Source: an uncultured bacterium
GTDB lineage: Bacteria > Fidelibacterota > Marinisomatia > Marinisomatales > JAHJCW01
Length of the DNA stretch: 64,000 nucleotides
Assembly (NCBI GenBank): GCA_965369995.1
Contig: CBDURO010000001.1
Coordinates: forward strand, 10,260 to 74,259
Direction of reading: 5' to 3'
In this document: in pieces, positions 17,508-34,431 of the stretch
Layout of the letters: each line of letters opens with the position of its first letter
Position numbering within the stretch: the first letter of the stretch is position 1
Notes under the pieces: model-generated
Told to the model about the DNA's origin: nothing
Seen by the model: only the letters and a program-made list of their open reading frames with translations
Database searches by the model: none
Program-made: the position numbers and the translations under genes

Positions 17508-17522
17508 GAGCGTAGCCTATCG

Positions 17523-18074: not shown

Positions 18075-18097
18075 GTTTTACAATCTATCTTTGATTA

Positions 18098-18133
18098 TCC
18101 CTGTTGTTTATGTAAGTTTGAATAACAGGGATT
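18098..18133 (+). promoter_or_regulatory. Perfect 9-bp stem-loop between the anti-sigma and GGDEF genes
   Basis: ATCCCTGTT (18098-18106) pairs with AACAGGGAT (18125-18133) around an 18-nt loop. No T-run follows, so it could be an atypical terminator or a regulatory hairpin. Confidence 0.35.
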
Positions 18134-18145
18134 TCCACATCTAAA

Positions 18146-19825: not shown

Positions 19826-19855
19826 ATATTAATTTAACAGATAGGAAAATTCAGA

Positions 19856-21487
19856 TTGAAAAGATACAATAAAAGCACAGGATACATTTTTTGGATATTA
19901 TTTATAAATATAATATTTATATTTAATTGTAGTCAATTACCGACTGTACAGCAAGATAATTCTCGGAATATGGTAAATGAAACTAATTCAGAATTCAGTG
20001 GATTGGGGCAAATCAATACTGAAGCTTTACAGCATATCATGGATGGTCAATTATATTTAGATCAAGGTGATTTTGCGATGGCTATTGTTGAATTGCAAGA
20101 AGCTCAACGATTAGAGACGAATGTAAGTTCTATCTATGTTTTATTGGCGGAATGTTATTGGAATTTGAATAAACCGGAAAGATCTATGGAATATTTGGAA
20201 ACCGCAATAGAAATTGATCCAAATGATACTGACGTCCGGGAAGTAATAGCCGAACAGCATTTTCGACTTCAGGATTTTTCAAAATCAGAGCAACAATATA
20301 AATTATTATTAGAATTAAATCCCGAAAGTGAAGACTATTTATTCGCACTCGGTGATCTTGCAAAAATTCAAAAAAAGCATGATCAAGCAATTGATTACTA
20401 CAAAAATGTTTATGAGATAAATAATAATACTATCCAAGCTTTAGAATTGGCAGCTGATTTATCACATCGCTTGGGAAAGTTTAATGAAGCCGATATATTA
20501 TATCGAAAATTATTAAAAGCAGATAGCTTAAATGTAAATTATTTAGGTGCTTATGCTGATATAAACGTTCAATTAAATAATCCTAAAGAAGCTATCGAGT
20601 TAGTCAAAACGATTATTGCCATTGAGGGTTCATCTATAGACAATTTAATTCAATTAGGAGTTTTGTATAACGAGCTTGAAAAATATGATGAGGCAATAGA
20701 AATTTTTCAGGAAATATTGCAAGAAGACAGCACTAACACTACCGGTTTACATTTTTTGTCAACAATACATCGTGAAAACAAGGAATATAAAAAAGCTCAA
20801 TTGTACGCCGATAAAATGATAATTGCTTTTCCGGAAAATCCGCAGGGCATTATAAATAGTGTACTAATAGCGCTTGATCAGGATGACAGCGAAAAAGCTA
20901 TAACAATATTGTCTCCCGCCGCTGCCGATTTCCCTGACGAATATTCTATTCATTATTTGCTTGGTATGAGTTATAATCTTGCGGAGAATTATAAAATGGC
21001 AGCAGTTTTCCTTGATAATGCCCGGCAAATTGCTCCTAATTCACGGAATACTTTGCATTTGTTGGCAATCGTTAACGATAATCTTAATAATTGGACTATC
21101 TCAGATGGAATATATCAACAACTAATTCAAACCGATAGCACTGATGCACAAGCTTTTAATAATTACGCTTATAGTTTAATTGAAAGGGGTGATAAAATTG
21201 AATTATCCAAAAAATATTCCCGCCGCGCGATTGAATTAGCACCGAATCAAGCAGCCTATCTTGATACTTATGGCTGGATATTATTCAAAACTGGGAATAC
21301 CAAAGAAGCTCATAAATATATTGAGAAATCGTTGAAAATTGATAATGAAAATGCAGAAGTATTAGAGCATATGGGTGATATATTAATTAAGATGAAAAAG
21401 AAGACCGAAGCGAAAGAATTTTATCAAAAAGCATTATCATTTGACCCGAAAAACCAACAACTCATTGAAAAATTAAGTGATTTTTAG
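19856..21487 (+). CDS. TPR-repeat lipoprotein
   Basis: 543 aa. Signal peptide ending in a lipobox-like FIFNCS, then TPR repeats throughout. TTG start. Confidence 0.8.
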   Translation: MKRYNKSTGYIFWILFINIIFIFNCSQLPTVQQDNSRNMVNETNSEFSGLGQINTEALQHIMDGQLYLDQGDFAMAIVELQEAQRLETNVSSIYVLLAECYWNLNKPERSMEYLETAIEIDPNDTDVREVIAEQHFRLQDFSKSEQQYKLLLELNPESEDYLFALGDLAKIQKKHDQAIDYYKNVYEINNNTIQALELAADLSHRLGKFNEADILYRKLLKADSLNVNYLGAYADINVQLNNPKEAIELVKTIIAIEGSSIDNLIQLGVLYNELEKYDEAIEIFQEILQEDSTNTTGLHFLSTIHRENKEYKKAQLYADKMIIAFPENPQGIINSVLIALDQDDSEKAITILSPAAADFPDEYSIHYLLGMSYNLAENYKMAAVFLDNARQIAPNSRNTLHLLAIVNDNLNNWTISDGIYQQLIQTDSTDAQAFNNYAYSLIERGDKIELSKKYSRRAIELAPNQAAYLDTYGWILFKTGNTKEAHKYIEKSLKIDNENAEVLEHMGDILIKMKKKTEAKEFYQKALSFDPKNQQLIEKLSDF

Positions 21488-22097
21488 ATTATCAATTTTA
21501 CTGATTGCAAACATACTCGTTGTTATCAGTTGTAGTCAAGCACCTGAAATTGTAATTGATGAAATAGTTGATTTGTCCTATGATGAATTAAAACAACAAT
21601 ACATTACTTGTAAAGGCAAGGGAGTAATGACTGCTCAAGGAAAACTGCCATGGAAATTAAATTATTCTTTCACAACTCAAAACGATAGTTCCTTCATTCA
21701 ATTTAGAGACATTTTCAGCAGAAGAGTACTTTTTGTTCAAGCTTTGCCAAGTGAAATAACAATTTGGGATATGCAGAAAAACCTTCAATATGATTCTGAT
21801 ATTGGCAATGTGATACCAATTTTTAATATTTTGAAATCTTATGACATTGCTCAAATATTATGGGGAGAAATTCCGAAAAGATATCATATATCAAATAAAG
21901 AATCAGGTTTTGAAAGGGATTTAAACTTAGTAAATTTTGAATCAACTGTAACACAATTAGGAATGGTATTGGATAAGGTAATATTTAAGTTAGATTCTAT
22001 TGATACAAAAGTCGAATTCAAAATATTTGGAAGAGATTATGGTGAAGCAAATCTTGATTTATCGAAGGGAATCCCTAAACAAGTGCCATTAAATTAA
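21477..22097 (+). CDS. LolB-like / DUF4292-type outer-membrane lipoprotein
   Basis: 206 aa. Lipoprotein signal LVVISCSQ. Its size and its position after a TPR protein match what is common in Bacteroidota. No catalytic motifs seen. Confidence 0.45.
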   Translation: MIFRLSILLIANILVVISCSQAPEIVIDEIVDLSYDELKQQYITCKGKGVMTAQGKLPWKLNYSFTTQNDSSFIQFRDIFSRRVLFVQALPSEITIWDMQKNLQYDSDIGNVIPIFNILKSYDIAQILWGEIPKRYHISNKESGFERDLNLVNFESTVTQLGMVLDKVIFKLDSIDTKVEFKIFGRDYGEANLDLSKGIPKQVPLN

Positions 22098-22098
22098 T

Positions 22099-23031
22099 AT
22101 GAATAAATCTTTATCAGTTGTAATCCCAACCTATAATGAGCTAGAATCACTTACTGAATTAATTACAGCTTTAAAAGATGTACTAAAATCACATAATAAA
22201 TGGGAAGTATTATTCATAGATGACGGTTCAACTGATGATTCGATAGGATTTCTTACAGAAATTGTTACTAGTGAATCAAATTTCAAATTAATTCAATTAC
22301 ATCGTAATTATGGTAAATCGGCTGCCTTGGCGGAAGGATTCAAAGTGGCTACAGGAGATTATATTATTACAATGGATGCAGATTTACAAGATGATCCGAA
22401 AGAAATACCCAATCTAATTTCCAAGTTGGAGGAAGGATATGATTTGGTTACCGGTTGGAAAAAAACTCGAAAGGACCCTTGGACTAAACGGTTTCCATCA
22501 AAAATTGCTAATTTCGTAACAGGATTAATCACTGGTGTAAAAGTTCATGATATGAATTGTGGCTTGAAAATATATCGTCGAGCTGTAGTAAAATCAATAG
22601 ATATTTATGGAGGACGACATCGGTATATACCTGCTTTAGCCGGGCAAAAAAGATTTCGGATTGCTGAAATTCCCGTACAACATCATAAAAGACAATATGG
22701 TGTAACAAAATATGGCGGATCGCGTCTTTTTCATGGATTTTTTGATCTAATTACAATTCTCTTTTTGAATCGCTACACACAAAAACCTTTACATTTATTT
22801 GGCTTGTTTGGTTTATCCTGCCTTGCACTATCATTTATTAGTGAATTATATGTAGTTTTTTTAAAGATATTTTATAGTCATCCATTTCAAAAACATTTTG
22901 CGATGATGTTATTTGGCGTTATGTTATTCGTATTAGGATTATGGTTTTTCTCAATTGGATTAATCGGGGAGATGGTTGCTCAAACAACTCAAGATCGCGA
23001 AGACCGCGTGAAGCAAATACTTGGTAGTTAG
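22099..23031 (+). CDS. GT2 polyprenol-phosphate glycosyltransferase (GtrB/CsbB/ArnC/DPM1-like)
   Basis: 310 aa. SVVIPTYNE, FIDDGSTDDS and MDADLQDDP motifs, plus two C-terminal TM helices (LHLFGLFGLSCLALSF; MMLFGVMLFVLGLWFFSIGLIGE). That combination is typical of lipid-carrier-charging GT2 enzymes. Confidence 0.8.
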   Translation: MNKSLSVVIPTYNELESLTELITALKDVLKSHNKWEVLFIDDGSTDDSIGFLTEIVTSESNFKLIQLHRNYGKSAALAEGFKVATGDYIITMDADLQDDPKEIPNLISKLEEGYDLVTGWKKTRKDPWTKRFPSKIANFVTGLITGVKVHDMNCGLKIYRRAVVKSIDIYGGRHRYIPALAGQKRFRIAEIPVQHHKRQYGVTKYGGSRLFHGFFDLITILFLNRYTQKPLHLFGLFGLSCLALSFISELYVVFLKIFYSHPFQKHFAMMLFGVMLFVLGLWFFSIGLIGEMVAQTTQDREDRVKQILGS

Positions 23032-23058
23032 TTTTTTCCAGAATCCGATTTTAAATCG

Positions 23059-24177
23059 ATGCGTATAACACTTATAGGACCTTTTCCGCCATTCCGCGGC
23101 GGAATTTCCGATTTTAACTCAGCACTATTTAATGAATTGAATAAAACACATAGTTTACAGATAATTAATTATTCTACACAGTATCTAAAAATTCTTTTCC
23201 CCGGGAAAACACAATACAAAGATAATGTTGATGAGTCTCATAAAAGTGAACGAATATTAAGTTCAATCAATCCGTTTACATGGAGTAAAACTGCTAATAA
23301 AATTATCGAATTCCAACCTAACATTGTTGTTGTTCATTATTGGATGCCGTTTTTTGCACCTGCACTTCGAAAAATTGCTGTATCATTAAAGAAAAAAATA
23401 GATGCCAAAATAATAGCAATTTGTCACAATCTAATTCCGCATGAAAACCATTTTTTTTATCAACATTTCACAAAAACTTTTTTATATAAAATTGATCGAT
23501 TTGTAGTAATGTCAGAATCCGTTAAATCGGATTTATTAAAAATCATACCGAATGCAAAATTTAGATTAACACCGCATCCTATTTATAATATTTTTGGAAA
23601 TACTATTGATAAGAAAATTGCGAGACAAAATCTTGATATTAAAGCTAAGAATGTGATCTTATATTTTGGCTTGATTCGTGAATATAAAGGATTAGATATT
23701 TTATTAAATAGTATTCCAAAAATCAAACAGGAACTCAATGATTTTATTGTAATTGTAGTAGGTGAATGTTACGAGAAAACAGAAAAATATTATGATATTA
23801 TTGAAAATTTAAAAATACAAGATTCAGTTGATTTAAGATTAAAATTCATTCCTGATAATGAAATTTTGGAATATTTTTCAGCAGCTGATGTTGTGGCATT
23901 ACCATATCGCACTGCAACACAAAGTGGAATAACACAAATTGCTTATAATTTTAACAGACCTGTGATAGTTAGCGATGTTGGCGGATTGGCAGAAATTGTG
24001 CCAAATGGAAAAACCGGTTATGTCGTAAAACCTGACTCAAATGAATTCGCAAAAGCGATTATCAACTATTTTAAAGATAATAAATTTGAAGAATTTTCTA
24101 AAAATATTAAGGTTCATAAGCAATTATTTTCATGGGAAAAATTTGTAGATAACTTAATGGAATTAGCATCGGAATGA
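23059..24177 (+). CDS. Glycosyltransferase family 4 (GT-B)
   Basis: 372 aa. C-terminal GT1/GT4 signature region ADVVALPYRTATQSGITQIAYNFNRPVIVSDVGGLAEIV. Confidence 0.8.
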   Translation: MRITLIGPFPPFRGGISDFNSALFNELNKTHSLQIINYSTQYLKILFPGKTQYKDNVDESHKSERILSSINPFTWSKTANKIIEFQPNIVVVHYWMPFFAPALRKIAVSLKKKIDAKIIAICHNLIPHENHFFYQHFTKTFLYKIDRFVVMSESVKSDLLKIIPNAKFRLTPHPIYNIFGNTIDKKIARQNLDIKAKNVILYFGLIREYKGLDILLNSIPKIKQELNDFIVIVVGECYEKTEKYYDIIENLKIQDSVDLRLKFIPDNEILEYFSAADVVALPYRTATQSGITQIAYNFNRPVIVSDVGGLAEIVPNGKTGYVVKPDSNEFAKAIINYFKDNKFEEFSKNIKVHKQLFSWEKFVDNLMELASE

Positions 24178-25010
24178 ATCCTTTAGTTTATATAATTATT
24201 CTGAATTGGAATGGCAAGGATCTCACGATGGATTGCTTAAAATCATTAACGAAAGTTCAATATGATAATTATAAAATATTGGTTGTGGATAACGGATCAA
24301 ACGATAATTCAGTAGATATAATTAAGAAAGAATATCCCAATGTAGAAATTCTACAGTTAGATTATAATATTGGTTATGCGGCTGGCAACAATGCGGGATT
24401 TGATTTCCTAAAAAGTCAGAAACCTGATTATATAATATTTTTGAATAATGATACAATTGTTGATAAAAACTTTATTGAACCGCTTGTTAAGCCATTAGTT
24501 GATAATTCTGAGATAGGTCAAACAGTGCCTAAAATATTCTATGCGAAAGACCAAAACAGAATTTGGTATGCCGGTGGAAAGGTTAATTTATGGTTAGGCC
24601 AAATTTATCATAGTGGAATAAGGAAAAACGATAGTAGTAGATATTCCAAATCCCAATATACTGATTATGCAACCGGTTGTTGTTTTTGTATGCGCTATGG
24701 TGATTATTATGAACTTGGCGGATTTGACACATCATTTCCAATGTACTGTGAAGATGTAGATTTGTCGTTAAGAATTCGAGCTAGAGGAAAAAATATTTCA
24801 TACGTACCAAATTCAAATATTTGGCATAAAATTTCTGCTTCTATTGGTGGAGAATTGTCAAATATGAAACTTAAAAGGAAGTTACGTGGGTTTAAAATAT
24901 TATTTGGTAAGCATGCAAATTTTCTGCAGAAGATTACAATTATATTGTCTCGGATTATATCAATTCCGTATCGATTATTAAAATTTATTTATTTAATCAT
25001 AAAGAAATAA
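24174..25010 (+). CDS. Glycosyltransferase family 2
   Basis: 278 aa. IIILNWNG, VVDNGSNDNS, FLNNDT and CEDVDLSLR motifs. ATGA overlap with the upstream gene. Confidence 0.85.
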   Translation: MNPLVYIIILNWNGKDLTMDCLKSLTKVQYDNYKILVVDNGSNDNSVDIIKKEYPNVEILQLDYNIGYAAGNNAGFDFLKSQKPDYIIFLNNDTIVDKNFIEPLVKPLVDNSEIGQTVPKIFYAKDQNRIWYAGGKVNLWLGQIYHSGIRKNDSSRYSKSQYTDYATGCCFCMRYGDYYELGGFDTSFPMYCEDVDLSLRIRARGKNISYVPNSNIWHKISASIGGELSNMKLKRKLRGFKILFGKHANFLQKITIILSRIISIPYRLLKFIYLIIKK

Positions 25011-25011
25011 A

Positions 25012-25914
25012 ATGATTCAACTAATAAAAAATCGATTACAAAGAATTAAAGTAAATTTTAAACGTTTTGGATTGCTTAACACTGTAAAATATTTGATACA
25101 AAACGCAATTATAAAACGACCTGTTAATCAAATCAATTATTATCTAAAAAGGAAACAATATCCGCAGAATATAATTTTTATTACATCACTACCAAAAAGT
25201 GGATCAACGTGGTTATCAAATATGTGTTCAGGTTTATATGGATTTGATTTGTTTGCCCCGATCAAATGGAATACATATATTGCGAAAGAATGGGATGATT
25301 CACGTTGGGATTTAGAAACAGATATTTTTAAAGAATTCAGAAATAAGTTAGTGGTTATTCGTGGTCACACTTGGGCGATACCTAAAAATTTAAATGTATT
25401 AAAGAAATCTAATCTAAAATATATCATTGGCGTACGCGATCCTCGCGATAAATTAATTTCCGAATATTGGCATAGTAGGAATTTCCCAAAACATTGGGCG
25501 CATGACCAGGCACAAAAGCTTTCAATAAATGAATTTATTACGTATAAATTGGAATCCGGTGAATTTGAAAAAGAAACCTTAAACTGGATTAGAAATTGGT
25601 TGAAAAATCGTGATTTAACAAAATCAATAATTATTCGATATGAAGATATGTTAAATAATCCAAATACAGTTCTTGAAAAAATATTTAACTTTTTAGGTTT
25701 CAAAATTGAGCAGAAGAAAATAGAAAATATTATTGAAATAAATAGTTTTGATAAAATTACAGGTCGTAAACGTGGTAAAAACGATGATACAAAATTCGTT
25801 CGTAAGGGTGTGTCGGGTGAATGGGAAACTGCTTTTAGCAAGGAACAAAAGTCGTTTTTCAGTAAAATTGGTGAAGATGTAATTGAAAAACTGGGATACA
25901 CGCCTACAATCTAA
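25012..25914 (+). CDS. PAPS-dependent sulfotransferase (Sulfotransfer_1-like)
   Basis: 300 aa. 5'-phosphosulfate-binding loop PKSGSTW, 3'-phosphate-binding RDPRDKLISEYWH, and C-terminal RKGVSGEWETAF (the RKGxxGxW motif). Confidence 0.8.
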   Translation: MIQLIKNRLQRIKVNFKRFGLLNTVKYLIQNAIIKRPVNQINYYLKRKQYPQNIIFITSLPKSGSTWLSNMCSGLYGFDLFAPIKWNTYIAKEWDDSRWDLETDIFKEFRNKLVVIRGHTWAIPKNLNVLKKSNLKYIIGVRDPRDKLISEYWHSRNFPKHWAHDQAQKLSINEFITYKLESGEFEKETLNWIRNWLKNRDLTKSIIIRYEDMLNNPNTVLEKIFNFLGFKIEQKKIENIIEINSFDKITGRKRGKNDDTKFVRKGVSGEWETAFSKEQKSFFSKIGEDVIEKLGYTPTI

Positions 25915-25915
25915 T

Positions 25916-27445
25916 ATGAGTAATAAAAACTTTACCCCTGCTCAAAAAATTGCCAAGGAATCTACAATCTCATTTGTAGGATTGGGTTACGGTCAGTTTG
26001 TTAGATACTTATTTACTGCATTACTGGCTCGCTTGGTCGGGGTACAATATCTTGGTATTTATTCGTTAGGTAATTCCATAACCAATATAGCCGGTGTAAT
26101 CAGTAAAGCAGGTACCGATGTCGGATTAATGCGTTATATCAGTAGGCGCGATATTATAAAAGATCGAGAATCGATAAAAAATGATATTAAATCAGCATTG
26201 AAAATGGGACTCGTTTTCTCGATTATAATCATGTTAGCTCAAATAATGTTATCAAGATGGTTGGTAGAAAATGTGTTTGAAGCATCATCGTTATTGAGAA
26301 TTGTGTTAATAATTTATGCTGTGTCGATACCGTTTACGGCTCTAATGACGATAGCGACATTTGCCACACAAGGATTCCAATTACTTAAATATAAAGTCTT
26401 TGTGGAATACATTCTAAATCCAACAGTATTAATAGTTTCTATGATATTTATGTATTTTGCTTTTTCAAGTGAATTGGCAATAATTCTGCCAACATTATTG
26501 ACTGGAATCGCCGGCTTTACGGTTGCGAATTATTTCCTTAAGAAAATTGCAGGCGTCAATATTCTAAATATCGGGAATATCAATTTCAATAAAAAGATAC
26601 TTACTTATTCTTTACCAATAATGTTTACTATGATATTAGGTTCGCTTTTACATTGGATGGACATATTGATGTTGGGATATTTTACTAATACCGAGACTGT
26701 TGGATTATATCACCCGGCAGTAAGAACAGCCGGGTTACAGCAATCAATTTTAATTGCATTTGCAGGAATTTTTGCTCCGATGTTTTCAAAATATTTTGCT
26801 CAAGATAATTTTACCGGCATGCACCATATTTATAAATTAGTAACGAGATGGATACTTACTTTAGTGATTCCTGTTTTTATTTTAATTATTCTTTTTTCTA
26901 CAAAAATTATGCTTCTTTTTGGAGCAGATTTTATACAATCATCAGAGGCACTGATAATTTTATCGATTGGCACATCAATTTTTGCAATATTCGGAGTTAG
27001 CAGCACGGCATTGGTTGTATCGGGTTATCAAAAATTAAATTTAGTTAATGCTTTATCAGCGACAATTCTGAATATTTGTCTGAATATAATTTTAATACCA
27101 AAATATGGAATTATGGGTGCAGCGTGGGCAACCTTATCATCAATGACGTTTATTGCTATGGTACGCATAATAGAGACTCGAATTTTTCTAAAAATTAATC
27201 CATTTAATGTAAAAGTATTAAAACCAATCCTGGCTGGAATTATTACCTATGGAATTTTACAATACATTAAACCGAATTTAATGGTGTATCATACAGTCAT
27301 AACTTTGATATTATCGATTATAATAATTTTTGCTGTTTATGGTGTACTGTTATTACTATTTAAATTTGATAAAGATGACAAAGATTTTCTACGCTCACTA
27401 AATTTTCTTAAAAACATGGTAATAAAACCAACTGTTCGGAAATAA
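25916..27445 (+). CDS. Wzx-type polysaccharide flippase (MOP superfamily)
   Basis: About 509 aa with 12-14 TM segments. Typical polysaccharide-biosynthesis-protein organisation. I prefer the ATG at 25916, just after the sulfotransferase stop, over the track's TTG at 25883. Confidence 0.7.
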   Translation: MSNKNFTPAQKIAKESTISFVGLGYGQFVRYLFTALLARLVGVQYLGIYSLGNSITNIAGVISKAGTDVGLMRYISRRDIIKDRESIKNDIKSALKMGLVFSIIIMLAQIMLSRWLVENVFEASSLLRIVLIIYAVSIPFTALMTIATFATQGFQLLKYKVFVEYILNPTVLIVSMIFMYFAFSSELAIILPTLLTGIAGFTVANYFLKKIAGVNILNIGNINFNKKILTYSLPIMFTMILGSLLHWMDILMLGYFTNTETVGLYHPAVRTAGLQQSILIAFAGIFAPMFSKYFAQDNFTGMHHIYKLVTRWILTLVIPVFILIILFSTKIMLLFGADFIQSSEALIILSIGTSIFAIFGVSSTALVVSGYQKLNLVNALSATILNICLNIILIPKYGIMGAAWATLSSMTFIAMVRIIETRIFLKINPFNVKVLKPILAGIITYGILQYIKPNLMVYHTVITLILSIIIIFAVYGVLLLLFKFDKDDKDFLRSLNFLKNMVIKPTVRK

Positions 27446-27446
27446 T

Positions 27447-29801
27447 ATGTTATCAAAAAAACAATTAATTACAGTTCCCATTTTATTAGTGTTATTGTGC
27501 ATCATTTTTTATCCGGTAATTTTCCAAGGAAAAATATTTAGCTCGCCTGATTCACTAAATCCAAAAGCTGCTGCAATCATTTTAAGTGAAACACAAAAGG
27601 AAATTGGCGAGTATCCTCTTTGGCAACCTTGGATTTTTAGCGGCATGCCGACAGCCGAGTCATTCACAAACACAAGCAACTTATATTTTTTACAATACGT
27701 TTTCCAATTACTGCATATTCCTACGATCATTATACATTTATTACATTTTTTATTTGCCGGTTTAGGAATGTATATATTATTGCGCTACCTTAAAATATCG
27801 CAAATTGTTGCGATAATTAGTGGAGCTGGCTTTATGTTGATGCCATATTTGGTAACAATGGAAGTATTTGGTCATGGCAGCCAAGCGATGACAGCAGCAT
27901 ACATACCTTGGGCGTTTTGGGCAGCTCTCAAATTATTTGATAAACAAAGGATTTTGGATGCCGGAATGTTGGCAATCATTCTTGGTCTGCAACTTCAGCG
28001 AGCTCATGTGCAAATTGCTTATTACACATGGATGTTAATAGGAGCTTTATTCTTATTTAAATTAATATTGTATCTTATAGACAAAGAACTTCGCAATAAA
28101 GCGATTAAAGGAAGCGTTCTATTCGTTGTCGCTATTATTTTAGCACTTGGTATTGCTGCATTAGTCTATTTACCGAGTTTACAGTATTCCTCTGAATCAA
28201 TTAGGTCAGTTGGCCAACCCGGTTCAGCAAGCTATGATTATGCTACAAGTTGGTCATTTCATCCCAAGGAAATTCTTACATTTTTCATTCCATCTGCATA
28301 TGGTTTTGGAGGTCAAACATATTGGGGCAAAATGCCTTTTACCGATTATCCGAATTATATGGGTATAGTTTTTTTATTATTAGCTGTGTTTGCTATAATA
28401 AAAAAACGAAATGCTGTTGTATGGTTTTTAGCAGGAACAACCCTAATTGCTCTGCTAATTTCATTTGGACGACATTTTGGTATTGTATATAATTTATTTT
28501 ACGATTTTATTCCATACTTCAGCAAATTTCGGATACCAAGTATGATATTAATTATCGTTCAGTTCAATACCGTAATATTAGCTTGCTTCGGATTAGAACA
28601 ACTTGTTGAACGTAATTGGAAAGACATACCAAAATGGTTTTGGTGGATTGCAGGTAGCGCAGGTTTTATTATATTGATGCTACTTTTTGGCAGCGGTTGG
28701 TTAAAAGAAATAGTCTCAAACGGTTTCACACAGCCTCGTACACAAGATTCACGTTTTGTTGAAGTGATAAATAATTTAAGATGGAAAATGTGGATTAAAG
28801 ATGCTTGGTTAATGATATTATTTACCATAGGGTTGCTTGCTGCTTTTTTCCTTTTTATGAAAGATAATATTTCTAAAGTTATATTCATTGTAATAATTGG
28901 CGCATTAGCGCTTATTGATTTAGGAATAGTCAATTATAAAATAGTACAACCCGAACCAAATTCTGGAAGAGTTTCCCAACTTGTTAGTAAAAAAGCTATT
29001 GAGAGATACTTTCAACACGATAAAATAACCAAGTTCTTAACTGAAGATGAAACAGCTTACCGAGTTTACCCCATTGGTACCCTATTTGGTGAATCAAGAT
29101 TACAAGCCTTTGGAATTCAATCGGTAGGTGGTTATCATCCGGCAAAATTGGCTATCTACAATAGATTCTTATCTAAAACAAATAATATAAGTACATTGCC
29201 GCTAATGCGAATGATGAATATCCGTTATATACTTAGTCCACAAGTGGTAAATCATCCCGATTTAGAGAAAGTATTTATTGACAAAATGCAAACCGGTTCA
29301 GGTAAAATTACGATATGGGTTTATCGCATTTCACACAGTATCCCGCGTGCTTGGTTCGTCGATAAAGTTGAAGTTGTTAACGAAAACGATTTATGGCAAA
29401 ATCTATTAAATGAATCGTTTGATCCTGCACAAATTGCGTTTATTAATGAACCGCTTACTGAAGTAATCACCAAAGGCGATAAAATCTTGGAATATGAATC
29501 ATCAATTCATCATATTAAGCTGAAAACCACCTCTCAAAATGCAGGATTTCTTGCAATAAGTGAAGTTCACTATCCATTAAGATGGAAAGCAAAGATTGAT
29601 GGTAAACCGATCAAAACATATGAAACAAATGGTATAATTCGCGGAATAGAAGTTCCTGTTGGAGAACATATAATTGAATTTGAGTATGATAAATCAGTGT
29701 TTCATAAAGGAATATTAATATCAATTTCATCATTTATCTTAGCAATTGGTATTATAGCATTTGGACTGATTAGGAATAAAAAGACTAATGAACTGGTATA
29801 A
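27447..29801 (+). CDS. YfhO-family polytopic membrane protein (GT-C-type glycosyltransferase candidate)
   Basis: 784 aa. Many N-terminal TM helices, a large C-terminal extracytoplasmic domain and a final TM anchor, which is the size and topology of YfhO proteins. Confidence 0.55.
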   Translation: MLSKKQLITVPILLVLLCIIFYPVIFQGKIFSSPDSLNPKAAAIILSETQKEIGEYPLWQPWIFSGMPTAESFTNTSNLYFLQYVFQLLHIPTIIIHLLHFLFAGLGMYILLRYLKISQIVAIISGAGFMLMPYLVTMEVFGHGSQAMTAAYIPWAFWAALKLFDKQRILDAGMLAIILGLQLQRAHVQIAYYTWMLIGALFLFKLILYLIDKELRNKAIKGSVLFVVAIILALGIAALVYLPSLQYSSESIRSVGQPGSASYDYATSWSFHPKEILTFFIPSAYGFGGQTYWGKMPFTDYPNYMGIVFLLLAVFAIIKKRNAVVWFLAGTTLIALLISFGRHFGIVYNLFYDFIPYFSKFRIPSMILIIVQFNTVILACFGLEQLVERNWKDIPKWFWWIAGSAGFIILMLLFGSGWLKEIVSNGFTQPRTQDSRFVEVINNLRWKMWIKDAWLMILFTIGLLAAFFLFMKDNISKVIFIVIIGALALIDLGIVNYKIVQPEPNSGRVSQLVSKKAIERYFQHDKITKFLTEDETAYRVYPIGTLFGESRLQAFGIQSVGGYHPAKLAIYNRFLSKTNNISTLPLMRMMNIRYILSPQVVNHPDLEKVFIDKMQTGSGKITIWVYRISHSIPRAWFVDKVEVVNENDLWQNLLNESFDPAQIAFINEPLTEVITKGDKILEYESSIHHIKLKTTSQNAGFLAISEVHYPLRWKAKIDGKPIKTYETNGIIRGIEVPVGEHIIEFEYDKSVFHKGILISISSFILAIGIIAFGLIRNKKTNELV

Positions 29802-30951
29802 ATATTCAGTAAATATAAAAGCCGGGTTATTTATTCTTGGAATATTTCTTGTTTCTGCATTTGTACTTTTTACACAGAAGATCGTAAGAGATCTACGAGA
29901 TGATAATCGAGAAATTGTGCAGTTATATGCTGAAATAATAGCCGGAGTTGCAACAAGCGAAAATGATGAAAATTTAAATTTCATATTTGAAAATATCATT
30001 CAAAAAGTACAATTTCCACTAATTCAATCTGATGCGGAAATGAAGCCGATATCTTGGAGAAATTTACCGGATAATGTCAATTCTGAAGCCGGAGCTTTAC
30101 GGTATCAAAAAACCATGGATCACCAAAATGATCCTATTCCACTTGTTTATAAAAATCCTGATTCGAATGAAACAATTATATTCGGTTATCTGCATTTTGG
30201 AGATTCACGACTAATCAATCGATTGATATGGTTACCTTATTTGCAAATCGGATTAGTTGGTTTATTTATATTATTGGGATTTATCGGTTTTTCGGTAATT
30301 AGGAATAGCGAGAAAAGACATATTTGGGCGGGAATGGCACGTGAAACGGCACATCAATTGGGTACGCCTGTATCAGCTTTATTAGGCTGGGTTGACTTAT
30401 TGAAAACTAATCCGAATCGTTCAAAATCTATAGTGAAAGATATGGACATGGATTTAGCTCGCTTGCAGGAGATAAGTAGTCGCTTTAGCGATATGGGTAC
30501 CGCACCTAAATTTGAAAAATTAGATTTAGTTGAATTAATACAATCAATAATAAAATATCTGCAACATCGAGTTTCTGGAGTTGAAATCCGATTGACTTTT
30601 GATGATTCAGTGCAATATACAGTTAACGGTAATAAAAAATTATTAAGTTGGGCGATTGAGAATCTTGTGAAAAACGGAATTGATGCATCAAAGAATGTTG
30701 GGGGGAAAATCAATATAAATTTAAAAAAAGAGAAAAACCGATTTATTATAGATATAATAGATTTTGGTATGGGGATTCCTAAGAGAGATTGGAAGAATAT
30801 TTTTAGACCAGGATTCAGTACAAAAAAATACGGTTGGGGGTTAGGGTTATCTTTGACAAAAAGAATTGTTATGGATTTCCATAAAGGTAAGATTTTTGTT
30901 AAAGAATCTGTGATTGATTCCGGTACAACGATAAGTATAATCCTTAGATAA
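29788..30951 (+). CDS. Sensor histidine kinase (two TM segments, HisKA + HATPase_c)
   Basis: 387 aa. H-box ARETAHQLGTPVSALLGW, N-box ENLVKNGIDA, and G-boxes DFGMGI and GWGLGL. The start overlaps the yfhO-like stop by 14 nt. Confidence 0.85.
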   Translation: MNWYKYSVNIKAGLFILGIFLVSAFVLFTQKIVRDLRDDNREIVQLYAEIIAGVATSENDENLNFIFENIIQKVQFPLIQSDAEMKPISWRNLPDNVNSEAGALRYQKTMDHQNDPIPLVYKNPDSNETIIFGYLHFGDSRLINRLIWLPYLQIGLVGLFILLGFIGFSVIRNSEKRHIWAGMARETAHQLGTPVSALLGWVDLLKTNPNRSKSIVKDMDMDLARLQEISSRFSDMGTAPKFEKLDLVELIQSIIKYLQHRVSGVEIRLTFDDSVQYTVNGNKKLLSWAIENLVKNGIDASKNVGGKININLKKEKNRFIIDIIDFGMGIPKRDWKNIFRPGFSTKKYGWGLGLSLTKRIVMDFHKGKIFVKESVIDSGTTISIILR

Positions 30952-30975
30952 GATTGTAGAATTACATCTTATCTA
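30945..30975. promoter_or_regulatory. Perfect 10-bp AT-rich palindrome spanning the kinase stop codon
   Basis: TAGATAAGAT (30945-30954) pairs with ATCTTATCTA (30966-30975) around an 11-nt loop. No T-run follows, so terminator function is doubtful. Confidence 0.3.
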
Positions 30976-31028
30976 ATCGTAAATTCCGCGCTAAATTTTA
31001 ACTAATATATACTAAATAGGATAATTAT

Positions 31029-32741
31029 ATGACAACTTCATTGATAGAACCACACGGTGGCGAATTATGTAATTTATTTGTTTCTGAGGAACGTCAAAAA
31101 GAGCTGAAGAGTTTATTAATTAATGACGAATCATGGACTCTGACAGATAGACAAGTTTGCGATTTAGAATTAATTCTAAATGGTGGTTTTTCTCCGTTGA
31201 AAGGATTTTTTAATAAAAAAGACTATGATTCTGTAGTAAAAAATATGCGTTTGGCTGATGAAACTTTGTGGCCAATGCCAATTACACTTGATATAACCCA
31301 AGAGATTTCTGATAAACTTTCGCAAGGCGATAAGTTAGTACTGCGTGATAAAGAAGGATTTCCATTAGCAATTTTGCATATTGAAGATATTTGGAAACCG
31401 GATTTAAAAGCAGAAGCTCAATCTGTTTTTGGTACAGTTGATGATACACATCCGGCAGTAAATTATCTTTTGAATTTTACTAACCCTGTATATGTTGGTG
31501 GCACTTTAGAAGGCATGACATCCCCAAAGCATTATGATTATCAAGGACTTAGGCATACACCATCGGAGTTGCGTGAACAATTTTCAAAACGTGGTTGGGA
31601 AAATATTGTAGCGTTTCAAACTAGAAATCCAATGCATCGTGCTCATGTTGAATTAACGATGCGCGCTGCCAATGAAATTGGTGCTAATGTGTTAATTCAT
31701 CCGGTTGTCGGTTTAACTAAACCTGGAGATGTTGATCATTATACTCGGGTTAGATGTTATGAAAAAGTACTGCCAAAATATCCGCATGGAACAGTATTAT
31801 TAAGCTTGCTTCCTTTAGCAATGAGGATGGGCGGTCCGAGAGAAGCATTATGGCATGCAATTATCCGTAAAAATTATGGCTGTAATTTCTTAATTGTTGG
31901 ACGTGACCATGCCGGTCCCGGAAATGATAAGGACGGAAACCCATTTTATGGTCCATATGATGCACAAGATTTGTTAAAAGAGCATGAGAATGAACTCGGA
32001 ATAAAAATGGTTCCATTTAAATTGATGGTTTATATGGTGGATCGTGCGGAATATCGTCCTAATGATGAAGTACCGGAAGACGCAAAAATTCTAAGTATAT
32101 CCGGTACAGAATTACGACGCAGATTAGATAAAGGTTTAGAGATTCCGGAATGGTTTTCATATCCGGAAGTTGTTGAAGAGCTTAGAGTAACTAGACCTTC
32201 ACTAAATAAACGGGGTTTCTCAGTCTTTTTTACCGGACTTTCCGGTTCCGGAAAGTCAACATTGGCAAATGGATTGATGGTAAAACTATTAGAAGATGGT
32301 AGACGACCGGTAACGTTATTGGATGGTGATATCGTTCGTACCCATCTATCTAGCGAGCTTGGCTTTTCAAAAGAACATCGTTCAATTAATATACAAAGGA
32401 TTGGTTATGTTGCGAGTGAAATAACCAAAAATTTTGGTATAGCAATCTGTGCTCCTATTGCTCCGTACAAAGCTGATCGACAAGTAGTAAGAAAAATTAT
32501 TTCACATTATGGTGGATTTATTGAAGTGTACGTAAATACATCTTTAGAAGTATGTGAAAGACGTGATGTAAAAGGGTTGTATGCCAAAGCACGTCAGGGT
32601 ATTGTGAAAGAGTTTACCGGAATCAGTGATCCATATGAAAAGCCGGAGAATGCCGAAATTGTTATTAATTCAGAGGATACTGATCCCGAAATATTAGTAC
32701 AGGATATTTTACTTAAAATTGAACAATTAGGTTATATCTAA
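31029..32741 (+). CDS. sat/cysC: Bifunctional sulfate adenylyltransferase / adenylylsulfate kinase (PAPS synthase; Sat N-terminal, CysC C-terminal)
   Basis: 570 aa. ATP-sulfurylase motifs QTRNPMHRAHVEL and VGRDHAGPG. The APS-kinase domain has an intact P-loop GLSGSGKST and LDGDIVR. Confidence 0.92.
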   Translation: MTTSLIEPHGGELCNLFVSEERQKELKSLLINDESWTLTDRQVCDLELILNGGFSPLKGFFNKKDYDSVVKNMRLADETLWPMPITLDITQEISDKLSQGDKLVLRDKEGFPLAILHIEDIWKPDLKAEAQSVFGTVDDTHPAVNYLLNFTNPVYVGGTLEGMTSPKHYDYQGLRHTPSELREQFSKRGWENIVAFQTRNPMHRAHVELTMRAANEIGANVLIHPVVGLTKPGDVDHYTRVRCYEKVLPKYPHGTVLLSLLPLAMRMGGPREALWHAIIRKNYGCNFLIVGRDHAGPGNDKDGNPFYGPYDAQDLLKEHENELGIKMVPFKLMVYMVDRAEYRPNDEVPEDAKILSISGTELRRRLDKGLEIPEWFSYPEVVEELRVTRPSLNKRGFSVFFTGLSGSGKSTLANGLMVKLLEDGRRPVTLLDGDIVRTHLSSELGFSKEHRSINIQRIGYVASEITKNFGIAICAPIAPYKADRQVVRKIISHYGGFIEVYVNTSLEVCERRDVKGLYAKARQGIVKEFTGISDPYEKPENAEIVINSEDTDPEILVQDILLKIEQLGYI

Positions 32742-32748
32742 AAGTATG

Positions 32749-32784
32749 AAAAACCCTCAAGGTTTAACAAACCTTGAGGGTTTT
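32749..32784. terminator. Bidirectional rho-independent terminator between convergent sat/cysC and mpg
   Basis: A-run, then CCCTCAAGG (32754-32762), a 9-nt loop, CCTTGAGGG (32772-32780) and a T-run. The last codons and stop of the minus-strand mpg gene lie inside the hairpin. Confidence 0.8.
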
Positions 32785-33458
32785 GTTATAATACAATAAT
32801 TTATTTCCGATTGATTCTTTCTTACTGTTAATGGATTGTTAGTACAATATTTAACATAATCGAAATCGATAAATCGATATAATAAATGTTCGTCGCGACC
32901 TGTTGGAATACCAAGTCTTTTAGCGTTAATGATTTTATTAGGTCGAATACTAACATCTTCAATGAAAAATTGATTTAAATCAAATTGTTTTTGATCCCAT
33001 TCTTTCACGGTTATACCTAACGATCTACAAAGCAATGTTTGTCCCGAACATAGCTTCATCGGTGAGCGAGGAGATCTTTCACTATTTGTCGGATTGTTTG
33101 ATTGCATAATTTTTGTCATATTTTCAGGACTCATGTTATCAAGATAAGGAATCCCTGATTTTATCAGAACGGCATTTCCTTTTCCTTTGCATGAAATATT
33201 TAATGAATCTTTCCCACGGGCATAGTACATATAAATTGTTCCAGGTGGCATAAATAATGCTCTTCGTTTGTGTGTGTATCCTAATGAAGCATGACTACCT
33301 TTTTCATTAATATAATATGCTTCAGTTTCAATTATTTGTGCTGAGAGCCAATTTTCACCGAATTTATTTCGGATGATTTTTCCTAACAAACTTTCTGCAA
33401 CTTTACTCGCATCACGATTAAAGAATGAAGTTTGTAATATATTTTGTTTCTTTGTCAT
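32757..33458 (-). CDS. mpg: DNA-3-methyladenine glycosylase (MPG/AAG family)
   Basis: 233 aa. IIETEAY, SHA, MPPGTIYMYYARG and LNISC motifs of the family. Confidence 0.85.
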   Translation of the reverse strand: MTKKQNILQTSFFNRDASKVAESLLGKIIRNKFGENWLSAQIIETEAYYINEKGSHASLGYTHKRRALFMPPGTIYMYYARGKDSLNISCKGKGNAVLIKSGIPYLDNMSPENMTKIMQSNNPTNSERSPRSPMKLCSGQTLLCRSLGITVKEWDQKQFDLNQFFIEDVSIRPNKIINAKRLGIPTGRDEHLLYRFIDFDYVKYCTNNPLTVRKNQSEINYCIITKPSRFVKP

Positions 33459-33539
33459 AAAAACAACATCTAATAATGTTGCCTTTGAGATTAAACTAAA
33501 AACAGGGTAATTTTCAATATTAATAAAAAGGAGAATAAC

Positions 33540-33875
33540 TTGGATATTATTTATGCATCAACTCAAGGAAATGGCGGTAGCGGAGGAATGCTTTCAATAT
33601 TGCCTTTTGTCTTGATAATGTTGATTTTATATTTTTTAATGATACGTCCGCAAGCCAAACGGCAAAAAGAAAAGAGGACAATGATGGAAGCCCTTAAAAA
33701 AGGAGATCGCATTGTAACGATTGGAGGTGTACACGGAACAGTTGTAGGATTAAAAAATCAAGGTAAAATCGTTGTAATAAAGGTTGACAAAAATACAAAT
33801 TTAACTGTTATTAAAAGTTCAATTGCTGGTTTAGCCGAATCAGTTACCGAAGAAGATACAAAGATTGAAGCTTAA
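33540..33875 (+). CDS. yajC: Preprotein translocase subunit YajC
   Basis: 111 aa. One TM segment (LPFVLIMLILYFLMIRPQAKRQKE) followed by KKGDRIVTIGGVHGTV. An AAGGAG sequence lies 6 nt upstream of the TTG start. Confidence 0.88.
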   Translation: MDIIYASTQGNGGSGGMLSILPFVLIMLILYFLMIRPQAKRQKEKRTMMEALKKGDRIVTIGGVHGTVVGLKNQGKIVVIKVDKNTNLTVIKSSIAGLAESVTEEDTKIEA

Positions 33876-33879
33876 ATAA

Positions 33880-34431
33880 ATGTCAATTTTTGAAATTGTA
33901 AAATATGGTGATCCGCGGTTGCGAAAAGTATGCAAAACAGTAAAAGATTTTTCTGTATTAACAGACATTGTCACCAATATGTACGATTCCATGTATGAAG
34001 CTGAAGGAATCGGTTTGGCGGCTAACCAAATTGGTATCGATCTAAATTTATTTATCATTGATATTACACACGCGGATGAGGTTACCAAATCAGCCGAATT
34101 TGTAAACGGTAAAATCGTTGATTCACATGGGGAATCAACAATTTCAGAAGGTTGTTTATCTATTCCAGGGGTGGAATTTGAAATTAAACGTCCGGAATTC
34201 ATTATTTTGCAATATCAAAAAATTGATGGTTCGAAACATGAGCAAGAATTTGACGGTTTATATGCAAGAGTTATTCAACATGAAATAGATCATCTAAATG
34301 GAAAATTGATTATTGACCATGTAAGTTCAATCGCGAAATTACGTTATAAGTCTCAGTTGAAAGAAATAAAGGAGAATGCGGATTATCACTATTCTGATCT
34401 ATTAGAACGTAGCGGTGCAACCCTATTATAA
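33880..34431 (+). CDS. def: Peptide deformylase
   Basis: 183 aa. GIGLAANQIG, EGCLSIPG and HEIDHLNG motifs. Confidence 0.96.
   Translation: MSIFEIVKYGDPRLRKVCKTVKDFSVLTDIVTNMYDSMYEAEGIGLAANQIGIDLNLFIIDITHADEVTKSAEFVNGKIVDSHGESTISEGCLSIPGVEFEIKRPEFIILQYQKIDGSKHEQEFDGLYARVIQHEIDHLNGKLIIDHVSSIAKLRYKSQLKEIKENADYHYSDLLERSGATLL

Follow-up and report, generated by a model that had tools for sequence, protein, structure and literature searches.

What does a string of eight co-directional genes do for the bacterium that carries it, when a predicted sulfotransferase stands among its glycosyltransferases and a predicted enzyme for making the sulfate donor closes the row? The string lies in a 64-kb stretch of contig CBDURO010000001.1 (64,000 nucleotides, called the window below) from an uncultured bacterium, and an earlier note on this DNA read it as a sulfated envelope-glycan pathway with a dedicated supply of 3'-phosphoadenosine 5'-phosphosulfate (PAPS). 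We found that the core of that reading, a candidate sulfated glycan and a local PAPS supply, stands, and that sulfation as the purpose of the whole operon falls because the place occupied by the sulfotransferase is variable. Judged by sequence, the locus is a phylum-wide glycan locus embedded among housekeeping genes rather than a self-contained sulfation island. Comparison of sequences and predicted structures establishes its family assignments, the integrity of its motifs, its synteny, its variable slot and a partial linkage between sulfotransferase and PAPS synthase. Our preferred interpretation, held with moderate confidence, is that the region is the Marinimicrobia version of a lipid-carrier-based operon for envelope-glycan assembly, and that the version present in this lineage makes a sulfated glycan.

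Mapping the window proteins onto 112 related loci (cited by L numbers where one has to be told from another) revealed the same gene order in dozens of independent metagenomic loci or metagenome-assembled genomes (MAGs), with protein identities between about 36% and 95%. The order runs from holA through genes for an extracytoplasmic function (ECF) sigma factor, an anti-sigma factor, a GGDEF protein, a TPR protein and a lipoprotein of ~200 aa to a glycosyltransferase (GT) of family GT2 (GT2a), a GT4, a second GT2 (GT2b), a variable slot, a Wzx flippase, a YfhO-type GT-C enzyme, a histidine kinase, yajC, def, fmt and rsmB, and this block is conserved phylum-wide, at GT-C identities as low as ~36%. 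Among homologues of the sulfotransferase, the GT-C enzyme and the small lipoprotein, those that carry a name belong to Candidatus Marinimicrobia, Neomarinimicrobiota or Fidelibacterota, and nearly all others are metagenomic. By this measure the host is a Marinimicrobia bacterium (Fidelibacterota, SAR406), and the phylum falls in the Fibrobacteres-Chlorobi-Bacteroidetes (FCB) group, where the earlier note had guessed it to belong. A horizontally acquired island was considered and rejected: the GC content of 0.30-0.35 is unremarkable, and all relatives place the locus between holA/ECF sigma and yajC/def/fmt/rsmB.

Only one part of the block changes. The slot between GT2b and Wzx measures from 0 to about 8 kb while its flanking genes stay syntenic, as seen when window positions 24174-27445 are set against L003, L011, L031, L032, L037-L059 and L105. 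A census of 94 slot open reading frames (ORFs) from 26 loci counted 21 methyltransferases, 15 GT2, 12 CDP-OH_P_transf proteins, nine GT4 and five TagF-like glycerophosphotransferases, together with radical SAM/SPASM enzymes, two sulfatase-family proteins and about ten sulfotransferases of three Pfam families (Sulfotransfer_1/3, Sulfotransfer_2/Gal-3-O-sulfotransferase-like). The window lineage (GT-C identity of at least about 64%) carries exactly one slot gene, encoding the Sulfotransfer_1 enzyme. In L064 (Ga0209457_1000002, 7568-15181), a close relative with a 70% identical GT-C enzyme and no GGDEF gene, the slot is empty and Wzx begins about 10 bp past GT2b; in a clade at ~50% identity, slots hold Sulfotransfer_2/Gal-3-O-sulfotransferase-like and Sulfotransfer_3 enzymes. 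L105, with slot sulfotransferases of other families (Table 1), additionally encodes a 462-aa sulfatase-family protein. Because the sulfotransferase occupies a hypervariable slot, sulfation appears to be a lineage-specific addition and not what the whole operon is for, and because the identified classes of slot enzyme use cytoplasmic donors (S-adenosylmethionine, PAPS, CDP-alcohols and nucleotide sugars), decoration would take place before flipping.

The enzyme that fills the slot in the window is, by hidden Markov model (HMM) and motifs, a bona fide PAPS-type sulfotransferase. It scores 101.2 bits against PF00685 (cutoff 22; residues 55-291) and its PAPS motifs are intact, which upholds the Sulfotransfer_1 call of the earlier note, for which a failure to match sulfotransferase HMMs would have been fatal. 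The 5'-phosphosulfate loop PKSGSTW (K62, G64, S65, W67), the 3'-phosphate site RDPRDxxxS (R142-S150), RKGxxGEW (R264-W271) and H119 are all invariant in 13 homologues of 36-80% identity, and these motifs have aligned counterparts in human SULT2A1, the top match in the PDB (2e-12). Ahead of the catalytic domain is an N-terminal extension of ~50 residues, basic in character, that might form a membrane-proximal amphipathic segment. Wherever flanks were examined, in Marinimicrobia, Rhodothermales and other MAGs alike, orthologues of the enzyme (43-81% identity) lay within clusters for polysaccharide biosynthesis. Those at 43-48% identity belong to polysaccharide clusters of other phyla, and in L006, L007 and L014 they stand directly upstream of Wzx; a sulfotransferase gene with the Wzx gene immediately after it is found repeatedly: in the Marinimicrobia sulfotransferase lineage, in both Rhodothermales loci and in one unclassified MAG.

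The last gene of the string encodes a fused ATP sulfurylase and adenosine 5'-phosphosulfate (APS) kinase, Sat/CysC, as had been proposed: Pfam finds PUA_2, ATP-sulfurylase and APS_kinase domains, the score against NCBIfam NF004040 is 906.9 bits (equivalog cutoff 669), and motifs are intact in both halves (QTRNPMHRAH and GRDHAG of ATP sulfurylase; the P-loop GLSGSGKST and LDGD of APS kinase). Since the APS-kinase motifs are intact, the expected product is PAPS and not merely APS. No gene for CysH, sulfite reductase or a sulfate transporter was found in the window or in the +/-10 kb flanks of seven related loci. Likewise, the Pfam scan, which covered each complete window ORF of at least 100 aa minus short ORFs nested antisense in longer genes, detected no cysH, cysIJ/sir, cysDN or recognisable sulfate permease, in agreement with what the earlier note had said of the window.

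We found Sat/CysC at the post-kinase position in L001/L002, L010, L012, L018, L034, L036, L062 and L064; among loci of the ~50%-identity clade, all those long enough to cover that position lack it. Among the loci covering both slot and post-kinase position, an orthologous sulfotransferase accompanies Sat/CysC in seven distinct loci (the window, L001/L002, L010, L012, L018, L034 and L062); six of these are other relatives, which disposes of the possibility that Sat/CysC is never syntenic with the cluster outside the window. An orthologous sulfotransferase without Sat/CysC was seen at L003, sulfotransferases of other families without it at L037, L044, L051 and L105, Sat/CysC with no sulfotransferase at L064 (where sat starts about 19 bp past the kinase), and neither gene at 12 loci. 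None of these loci combined Sat/CysC with a sulfotransferase of another family, and L055, which has such a sulfotransferase, ends before the post-kinase position. The association was nominally significant (Fisher p=0.011 for any sulfotransferase and p=1.3e-4 for the orthologue only), on loci that are phylogenetically nested. A simple orthologue-only co-occurrence (Fisher p=3.5e-5) was revised once other sulfotransferase families had been found in loci lacking Sat/CysC.

Past the kinase, the ~50% clade continues with yajC, L003 with MPG and yajC, and the window lineage with Sat/CysC, MPG and yajC, orders that suggest that the sulfotransferase was present first and that sat/cysC was recruited beside it later. 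Clusters in other phyla offer more independent support for the tie between the two enzymes. L006 (5264-13880, a Rhodocaloribacter MAG of the Rhodothermales) has adjacent genes for an SLC13/CitMHS-type permease, Sat/CysC (65% identity), two sulfotransferases (one at 45% identity), Wzx and Wzy; L014 (5544-10730, a Rhodothermales MAG) has Sat/CysC with a sulfotransferase and Wzx close downstream; and L030 (10001-12333, a Chlamydiae MAG) has a sulfotransferase-like ORF with Sat/CysC directly after it. From these gene arrangements, we consider it very likely that sat/cysC supplies PAPS to the sulfotransferase and has been selected for co-localisation, while its role as an exclusively dedicated PAPS synthase is plausible but unproven. 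The earlier claim of a dedicated synthase is thus borne out in the enriched linkage and undercut in its exclusivity, both by the five sulfotransferase loci without Sat/CysC and by the empty slot of L064, a locus that serves as a natural control for this question.

Turning to the glycosyltransferases, GT2a is by homology an ArnC-like polyprenyl-phosphate glycosyltransferase. It scores 129 bits with the Pfam GT2 family, lies closest to ArnC and PgfS in NCBIfam, matches ArnC (2.7e-57, residues 3-301 of 310), GtrB sll0501 (3.8e-34) and archaeal DPMS (2.8e-22) in the PDB, and has an MDAD/DAD motif and two C-terminal transmembrane helices (about 236-254 and 271-289). What had been described as a GtrB/CsbB-like polyprenol-phosphate GT2 is accordingly a full-length homologue of ArnC, GtrB and DPMS. 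ArnC/ArnT orthology was considered and rejected, with GT2a at 208 bits against an NF007986 equivalog cutoff of 529 and the GT-C enzyme of YfhO type. GT4 (Pfam Glycos_transf_1, 9e-24, 84 bits, plus Glyco_transf_4) and GT2b (Glycos_transf_2, 4e-22, 79 bits; top PDB match GalT1, 5e-11) have no transmembrane segment. GT2b is 41-75% identical across related loci, and GT4 is kept alongside it even in a deep group of loci, at 27-33% identity. The Wzx protein matches Polysacc_synt (60.8 bits), Polysacc_synt_3 (55.5 bits) and MatE, with about 10-12 hydrophobic segments.

The GT-C protein matches YfhO (PF09586) at 34.9 bits against a cutoff of 28.5, over its C-terminal 70 residues only (profile 763-835 of 835), and its more than 1159 homologues are named Marinimicrobia, Fidelibacterota or "YfhO family", with a precomputed PF09586 assignment. 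An AlphaFold2 (AF2) model built with 21 homologues reached a predicted local distance difference test (pLDDT) of 76 and a predicted template-modelling score (pTM) of 0.77, and its top 20 Foldseek matches in the PDB are all GT-C enzymes (AftD at 1.7e-6, STT3, AftA, AglB, PglB, EmbB, ALG9). The top 13 of these matches have E<=6e-4 and TM-scores of 0.28-0.45, which are modest and thus show a superfamily fold, not close kinship. The protein has the YfhO architecture of a multi-transmembrane N-domain, a periplasmic beta-rich domain and a final transmembrane helix, and D35 (in SPDSLNP), just past the first transmembrane segment (residues 7-25) and matching the conserved acidic residue of the first extracytoplasmic loop in GT-C enzymes, is invariant in 21 sequences. 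Fold and architecture together confirm the earlier proposal of a YfhO-type GT-C candidate. Its family and the neighbouring GT2a and Wzx genes suggest that its sugar donor may be polyprenyl-phosphate-linked and used at the outer membrane face. In Foldseek, the periplasmic beta-sandwich domain gives weak local matches to modules of carbohydrate-active enzymes, and carbohydrate-binding domains have been reported in AftD and possibly in S. aureus YfhO (PMC8035078); on the strength of the model and these reports, a glycan may be slightly favoured over a protein as the acceptor of the GT-C enzyme.

We propose that these parts would act in the following order, which we infer along with the lipid carrier, the identities of the sugars, the acceptor and the arrival of the sulfate on the glycan. 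GT2a would load a sugar onto polyprenyl phosphate at the inner membrane face, and the soluble GT4 and GT2b would build or extend a short lipid-linked oligosaccharide. The enzyme in the GT2b-Wzx slot would then decorate the lipid-linked intermediate from a cytoplasmic donor; in the window lineage, this would be O-sulfation by the Sulfotransfer_1 enzyme with PAPS, which the adjacent and probably co-transcribed Sat/CysC would make from sulfate and ATP. The Wzx-type flippase would carry the decorated intermediate to the periplasmic face, and the YfhO-type GT-C enzyme would transfer the glycan to a periplasmic or outer-membrane (envelope) acceptor. The overlapping histidine kinase and the upstream cyclic di-GMP (c-di-GMP) cyclase presumably regulate the process. 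The genes of the window lineage suggest that it probably displays a sulfated surface glycan.

Several observations weigh against this scheme. The scanned ORFs of the window include no gene for an initiating phosphoglycosyltransferase (PGT), Wzy, WaaL, a polysaccharide co-polymerase (PCP) or an outer-membrane polysaccharide export (OPX) protein, and the carrier could be undecaprenyl diphosphate (Und-PP) if the genome encodes a PGT outside the window. The same absences, together with a core of three GTs, argue for a short surface glycan over a secreted exopolysaccharide of high molecular weight. For YfhO enzymes that have been characterised, the transferred unit is one sugar rather than an oligosaccharide (PMC8035078). 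The deep group of loci (L069-L106, GT-C 35-41% identical; for example L106 at 4697-12370) keeps GT4, GT2b, a methyltransferase, a second GT4, Wzx and YfhO with no GT2a and no histidine kinase nearby, which makes GT2a less credible as the initiator of the flipped glycan; in L106, the cluster is flanked by gatB/obg/GNAT (Pfam) and by ORFs sized like those of a ribosomal-protein operon. On the side of sulfation, the co-occurrence counts are not phylogenetically independent and may reflect just one or two gain events within Marinimicrobia, and adjacency of Sat/CysC is neither necessary (L003, L037, L044, L051, L105) nor sufficient (L064) for a sulfotransferase in the slot.

The main rival to our scheme holds that two pathways share one operon, with GT2a, Wzx and YfhO adding a single polyprenyl-phosphate-linked sugar to a periplasmic polymer and GT4, GT2b and the sulfotransferase serving a separate Und-PP-linked glycan, the initiation, polymerase and ligase of which would be encoded elsewhere. 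All characterised YfhO-, GacL- and ArnT-type enzymes use polyprenyl-phosphate monosaccharide donors (PMC8035078), GT2a resembles ArnC and GtrB over its full length, distant YfhO relatives adjoin a GT2a-like gene in L108 and L112, and the window holds no PGT, Wzy or WaaL gene. However, a single flippase would then have to handle both lipid-linked substrates, in the deep group YfhO keeps company with Wzx, GT4 and GT2b in the absence of GT2a, and slot enzymes stand between GT2b and Wzx in every lineage; we regard such a division of labour as unlikely. It seems to us very improbable that the genes form a classical Wzx/Wzy-dependent cluster for a secreted, synechan-like and c-di-GMP-regulated exopolysaccharide, in which the YfhO-like protein would be an unconventional polymerase and the TPR protein and lipoprotein would provide outer-membrane export. 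The GGDEF and TPR genes are indeed tightly syntenic with the locus, distant sulfotransferase orthologues sit in true Wzx/Wzy clusters, and a histidine kinase lies inside the cluster as it does in xss (PMC8205485), but none of the scanned window ORFs matches Wzy_C, Wzz/PCP, Poly_export (Wza/OPX), Bac_transf or Glycos_transf_4 (WecA), the 784-aa protein matches GT-C glycosyltransferases by fold and not polymerases, and three core GTs suggest a short glycan. Membership in the classical Wzx/Wzy exopolysaccharide class was rejected: Wzx is present, and Wzy, PCP, OPX and PGT were not found in the window.

Two further alternatives concern the sulfate. Sat/CysC might be a general sulfate-activation enzyme, serving assimilation and all sulfation, that has come to lie beside the glycan locus by chance in this sub-lineage, a possibility that we take seriously but hold to be doubtful. 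L064 keeps the gene behind its kinase with no sulfotransferase in the slot, the PAPS used at the five sulfotransferase loci without a nearby Sat/CysC must come from a gene elsewhere, and co-occurrence within the phylum may go back to a single insertion event. Against a chance position, the 64-kb window has no cysH, cysIJ/sir or sulfate permease, the gene adjoins orthologous or similar sulfotransferases in two Rhodothermales MAGs and one Chlamydiae MAG, it shares the terminator of the operon, and its APS-kinase domain, which PAPS synthesis requires and APS-reductase-type assimilation does not, is intact. The sulfotransferase might, for its part, act on a membrane lipid, a small metabolite or a peptide, its operon position being incidental. 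The Sulfotransfer_1 family is broad, with steroid, bile-salt and phenol SULTs and antibiotic sulfotransferases as the nearest structures, and acceptor specificity is not readable from sequence. Yet a non-glycan substrate has little probability in our view when orthologues of 43-81% identity lie within polysaccharide clusters and directly upstream of Wzx in the sulfotransferase-bearing Marinimicrobia lineage, in two Rhodothermales loci and in an unclassified MAG, and when the slot otherwise holds glycan-modifying enzymes.

The ORF map of the window places eight co-directional ORFs where the earlier note had put them, with the domains it had named (ORF map, Pfam, NCBIfam; Table 1). The string is operon-like, with gene overlaps or 1-bp gaps and one strong terminator past sat/cysC: GT4 and GT2b overlap by 4 bp, the kinase start overlaps the GT-C stop by 14 bp, and Wzx, for which the ORF listing gives a TTG start at 25883, more likely begins at ATG 25916, 1 bp past the sulfotransferase stop. 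The terminator, already described as strong in the earlier note, is a bidirectional hairpin with a 16-bp stem containing six GC pairs, and is the sole strong one within 15500-34000. The spacer ahead of sat/cysC is moderately conserved among eight relatives (~19 bp in L064) and could hold an internal promoter or regulatory site; it matched no Rfam family at the gathering threshold, and Rfam and tRNA scans of the window gave no matches. A sigma-70 scan, which does not cover FCB promoters, returned 105 sites versus 99 expected from shuffles. The counterparts of the spacer in L001, L010, L012, L018, L034, L036 and L062 share TAAATTCC.CGCCAAATTTTAAC...TAAATAGGAT.

Table 1. Features of the glycan locus and of its upstream neighbours in the window, and slot sulfotransferases of other Pfam families in related loci (positions are those of the sequence named).
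Feature	Sequence	Position	Strand	Description
GT2a	window	22099-23031	+	polyprenyl-phosphate glycosyltransferase, ArnC/GtrB/DPMS type (predicted)
GT4	window	23059-24177	+	GT-B fold soluble glycosyltransferase, locus core
GT2b	window	24174-25010	+	soluble GT-A glycosyltransferase, locus core, left border of variable slot
Sulfotransferase	window	25012-25914	+	Sulfotransfer_1, PAPS-dependent (predicted), sole slot occupant in window lineage
Wzx	window	25916-27445	+	Wzx/MOP-family lipid-linked-glycan flippase, right border of slot
YfhO-type GT-C	window	27447-29801	+	784-aa membrane glycosyltransferase
Histidine kinase	window	29788-30951	+	orphan sensor, HisKA + HATPase_c
Kinase-sat/cysC spacer	window	30952-31028	+	77 bp
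Sat-CysC	window	31029-32741	+	bifunctional ATP sulfurylase / APS kinase, PAPS synthase
Bidirectional intrinsic terminator	window	32750-32784		between convergent sat/cysC and MPG DNA glycosylase gene
GAF-GGDEF diguanylate cyclase, membrane-anchored	window	18146-19825	+	conserved upstream neighbour
TPR-repeat protein	window	19856-21487	+	N-terminal signal/lipoprotein-like sequence; directly upstream of GT genes
Predicted lipoprotein, 206 aa	window	21477-22097	+	signal peptide ending VVISC
Slot sulfotransferase, other family	L037	5762-6592	-	by Pfam families
Slot sulfotransferase, other family	L044	5323-6141	-	by Pfam families
Slot sulfotransferase, other family	L044	6234-7229		by Pfam families
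Slot sulfotransferase, other family	L051	4745-6558	-	by Pfam families
Slot sulfotransferase, other family	L055	3803-5604	-	by Pfam families
Slot sulfotransferases, other families, with the 462-aa sulfatase-family protein	L105	2212-4985 and 7064-8452		by Pfam families

The suggestion of the earlier note that the GGDEF, TPR and lipoprotein genes ahead of GT2a may share an envelope module with the string gains support from their conserved synteny. The GGDEF protein (Pfam GGDEF 1e-45, plus GAF) has one N-terminal transmembrane segment and GGEEF and RxxD motifs, and its gene is syntenic in L001, L003, L012, L018, L031, L046, L054 and L062. The TPR protein matches several TPR families of Pfam and begins with a hydrophobic segment followed by Cys; its gene remains syntenic as far as L094, L101 and L102, where YfhO identity is about 36-38%. 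The predicted 206-aa lipoprotein, labelled LolB-like in the earlier note, has 96 homologues, all metagenomic or Marinimicrobia-type, and is syntenic in Marinimicrobia loci at 25-80% identity; it had no Pfam or NCBIfam match and no PDB profile match at E<=10, its AF2 model is of low confidence (pLDDT 45.6), and its one evident feature is the lipoprotein signal peptide. At the other end, the histidine kinase, with transmembrane segments at 10-28 and 153-171 around a ~125-aa periplasmic domain and the H-box AHQLGTP, follows the GT-C gene in all Marinimicrobia-type loci, and no response regulator is encoded within the block that holds it. Elsewhere in the window, the gene at 3029-4585 encodes a fusion of a response-regulator receiver domain with a PglZ (alkaline-phosphatase-like) domain, a protein that is a possible partner of the orphan kinase.

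Other features of the window lie farther out. The ECF sigma factor (16935-17507) is unusually strongly conserved, being 94% identical in relatives whose neighbouring genes reach just 60-72%; its anti-sigma partner (17523-18074) shows just 62-67% identity. A few kb upstream of the glycan locus and on the same strand are glmS (9110-10954; amino-sugar precursor supply), uppP/BacA (13754-14518; undecaprenyl-diphosphate phosphatase) and the gene for a SurE nucleotidase (6776-7537), which may be ordinary housekeeping neighbours. A long minus-strand ORF (1-2722), which has its start codon near 2722, is truncated where the window begins. Downstream are a complete operon for an Rnf-type (RnfCDGEAB) ion-translocating ferredoxin:NAD oxidoreductase (42865-48447), followed by an RseC/MucC-family gene, and an IS1595-family (ISXO2-like) transposase gene (55583-56362, +) between the genes for an HtrA-like protease and ileS, which an antisense ORF of 173 aa with no family match (55575-56096, -) overlaps.

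The literature that we searched held no relevant statement on Marinimicrobia sulfotransferases, sulfate assimilation, exopolysaccharides or this locus. The remark in the earlier note that no such pathway was described for FCB-type organisms therefore agrees with the literature searched, although FCB-group Rhodothermales MAGs do contain orthologous sulfotransferase/Sat-CysC/Wzx clusters. Going by the cluster figure and gene descriptions, the closest published analogue is a putative sulfated-glycosaminoglycan cluster of Pontiella sulfatireligans F21 (PMC7356697, Fig. 5), which comprises GT4s, GT2s, a Wzx-type TuaB, a methyltransferase, a sulfotransferase, YfhO and an undecaprenyl-phosphate GT2, and the cultured strain is described there as producing sulfated exopolymers that are mostly N-sulfated (PMC7356697). 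Likened by these gene descriptions, the two loci have nearly the same parts list, although Pontiella F21 belongs to the Kiritimatiellae of the Planctomycetes-Verrucomicrobia-Chlamydiae (PVC) superphylum and Marinimicrobia to the FCB group. As drawn in the figure, the Pontiella cluster has more GTs, sugar-nucleotide genes and GtrA than the Marinimicrobia locus, and, unlike the window locus, its figure legend lists neither Sat/CysC nor a histidine kinase. The Pontiella cluster, itself putative and uncharacterised in genetics and biochemistry, is not known as a phylum-wide locus with a swappable slot.

The logic of the core is that of multi-component transmembrane glycosylation, as in GacI/GacJ/GacK/GacL of Streptococcus pyogenes and the CsbB/GtcA/YfhO systems that add N-acetylglucosamine to lipoteichoic or wall teichoic acid (PMC8035078). 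In these systems too, a GtrB/ArnC-type GT2 makes a polyprenyl-phosphate sugar, a flippase (Wzx-type in Gac) moves it and an external GT-C enzyme transfers it, which in Bacillus, Staphylococcus and Listeria belongs to the YfhO family (PMC8035078), as at the Marinimicrobia locus. However, the CsbB and Gac systems are Gram-positive and place a single undecorated sugar onto teichoic acids or rhamnan, whereas the Marinimicrobia host is a diderm of the FCB group and its locus has two extra soluble GTs and a cytoplasmic decoration slot between GT2 and flippase. Viewed as a three-component GT2/flippase/GT-C system, the locus has co-located GT2a, Wzx and YfhO genes, a combination conserved across Marinimicrobia loci; it does not fit a three-component system for a single sugar, with GT4, GT2b and the slot between GT2a and Wzx in all Marinimicrobia loci.

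The synechan cluster xss of Synechocystis PCC 6803 has been tied experimentally to a sulfated polysaccharide (PMC8205485), and this Wzx/Wzy system is the only genetically dissected bacterial sulfated exopolysaccharide that we found in the literature searched. Like the Marinimicrobia locus, xss intersperses sulfotransferase genes with those for GTs and a Wzx flippase and includes a sensor histidine kinase gene; unlike it, xss lies on a megaplasmid and encodes a complete Wzx/Wzy/PCP pathway that has eight GTs, and a GT-C enzyme, a polyprenyl-phosphate GT2 and an adjacent PAPS synthase are not reported for it (PMC8205485). Among solved structures, GT2a is nearest to ArnC, and the ArnC/ArnT pathway for lipid A aminoarabinose follows a shared logic of an undecaprenyl-phosphate-sugar synthase, a flippase and a GT-C transferase acting on an outer-membrane glycolipid, but ArnA, ArnB, ArnD and ArnE/F are not in the window and the GT-C enzyme of the window is of YfhO type, not ArnT/PMT_2. 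In rhizobial Nod-factor sulfation, the genes for the sulfotransferase NodH and for its PAPS supply, NodPQ, go together, much as sat/cysC accompanies the sulfotransferase gene in the window; NodPQ belong to the CysDN/CysC type and are no Sat-CysC fusion, and NodH acts on a soluble lipo-chitooligosaccharide. In haloarchaea, an oligosaccharide linked to a lipid monophosphate is sulfated before its GT-C transfer (AglB/STT3) to protein asparagine. Homology of either system with the window locus was shown no further than the superfamily level.

By analogy with the haloarchaeal case, the locus could serve a phylum-wide general glycosylation in which an oligosaccharide linked to polyprenyl monophosphate and decorated (here sulfated) in the cytoplasm would be passed en bloc by the YfhO-type GT-C enzyme to envelope proteins or lipooligosaccharide, a bacterial counterpart of the sulfated dolichyl-phosphate-oligosaccharide pathway. 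We think this quite unlikely; were it true, the swappable slot would give one of the most abundant deep-ocean bacterial clades strain-specific surface chemistry (sulfate, methyl, glycerophosphate).

Within our preferred reading of an envelope-glycan assembly operon, the trio of GT2, Wzx-type flippase and GT-C enzyme is of an already known kind (GacI/GacK/GacL, PMC8035078). New are an operon that spans a diderm FCB phylum and sits among housekeeping genes, the combination of a polyprenyl-phosphate GT2 and a YfhO GT-C enzyme with extra cytoplasmic GTs, the modular decoration slot and, in one lineage, the recruitment of Sat/CysC to the operon end. Of greater note are the swappable design of the slot and how often sulfotransferases turn up among SAR406 loci.

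Few uncultured bacteria of the dark ocean are as abundant as Marinimicrobia (SAR406), and to our knowledge nothing is known about the cell surface of this phylum. An operon with a swappable slot would offer a genetic handle on surface-glycan diversity, and through it on evasion of phages and grazers, attachment to particles and metal binding. The presence of sulfotransferases in about half of the informative loci would point to bacterial, and not algal alone, sources of marine sulfated glycans. The locus would also widen the range of YfhO-type GT-C enzymes to include diderm FCB bacteria and, possibly, oligosaccharide donors that carry decorations, and its sulfotransferase/PAPS-synthase pairs are candidates for engineering sulfated polysaccharides.

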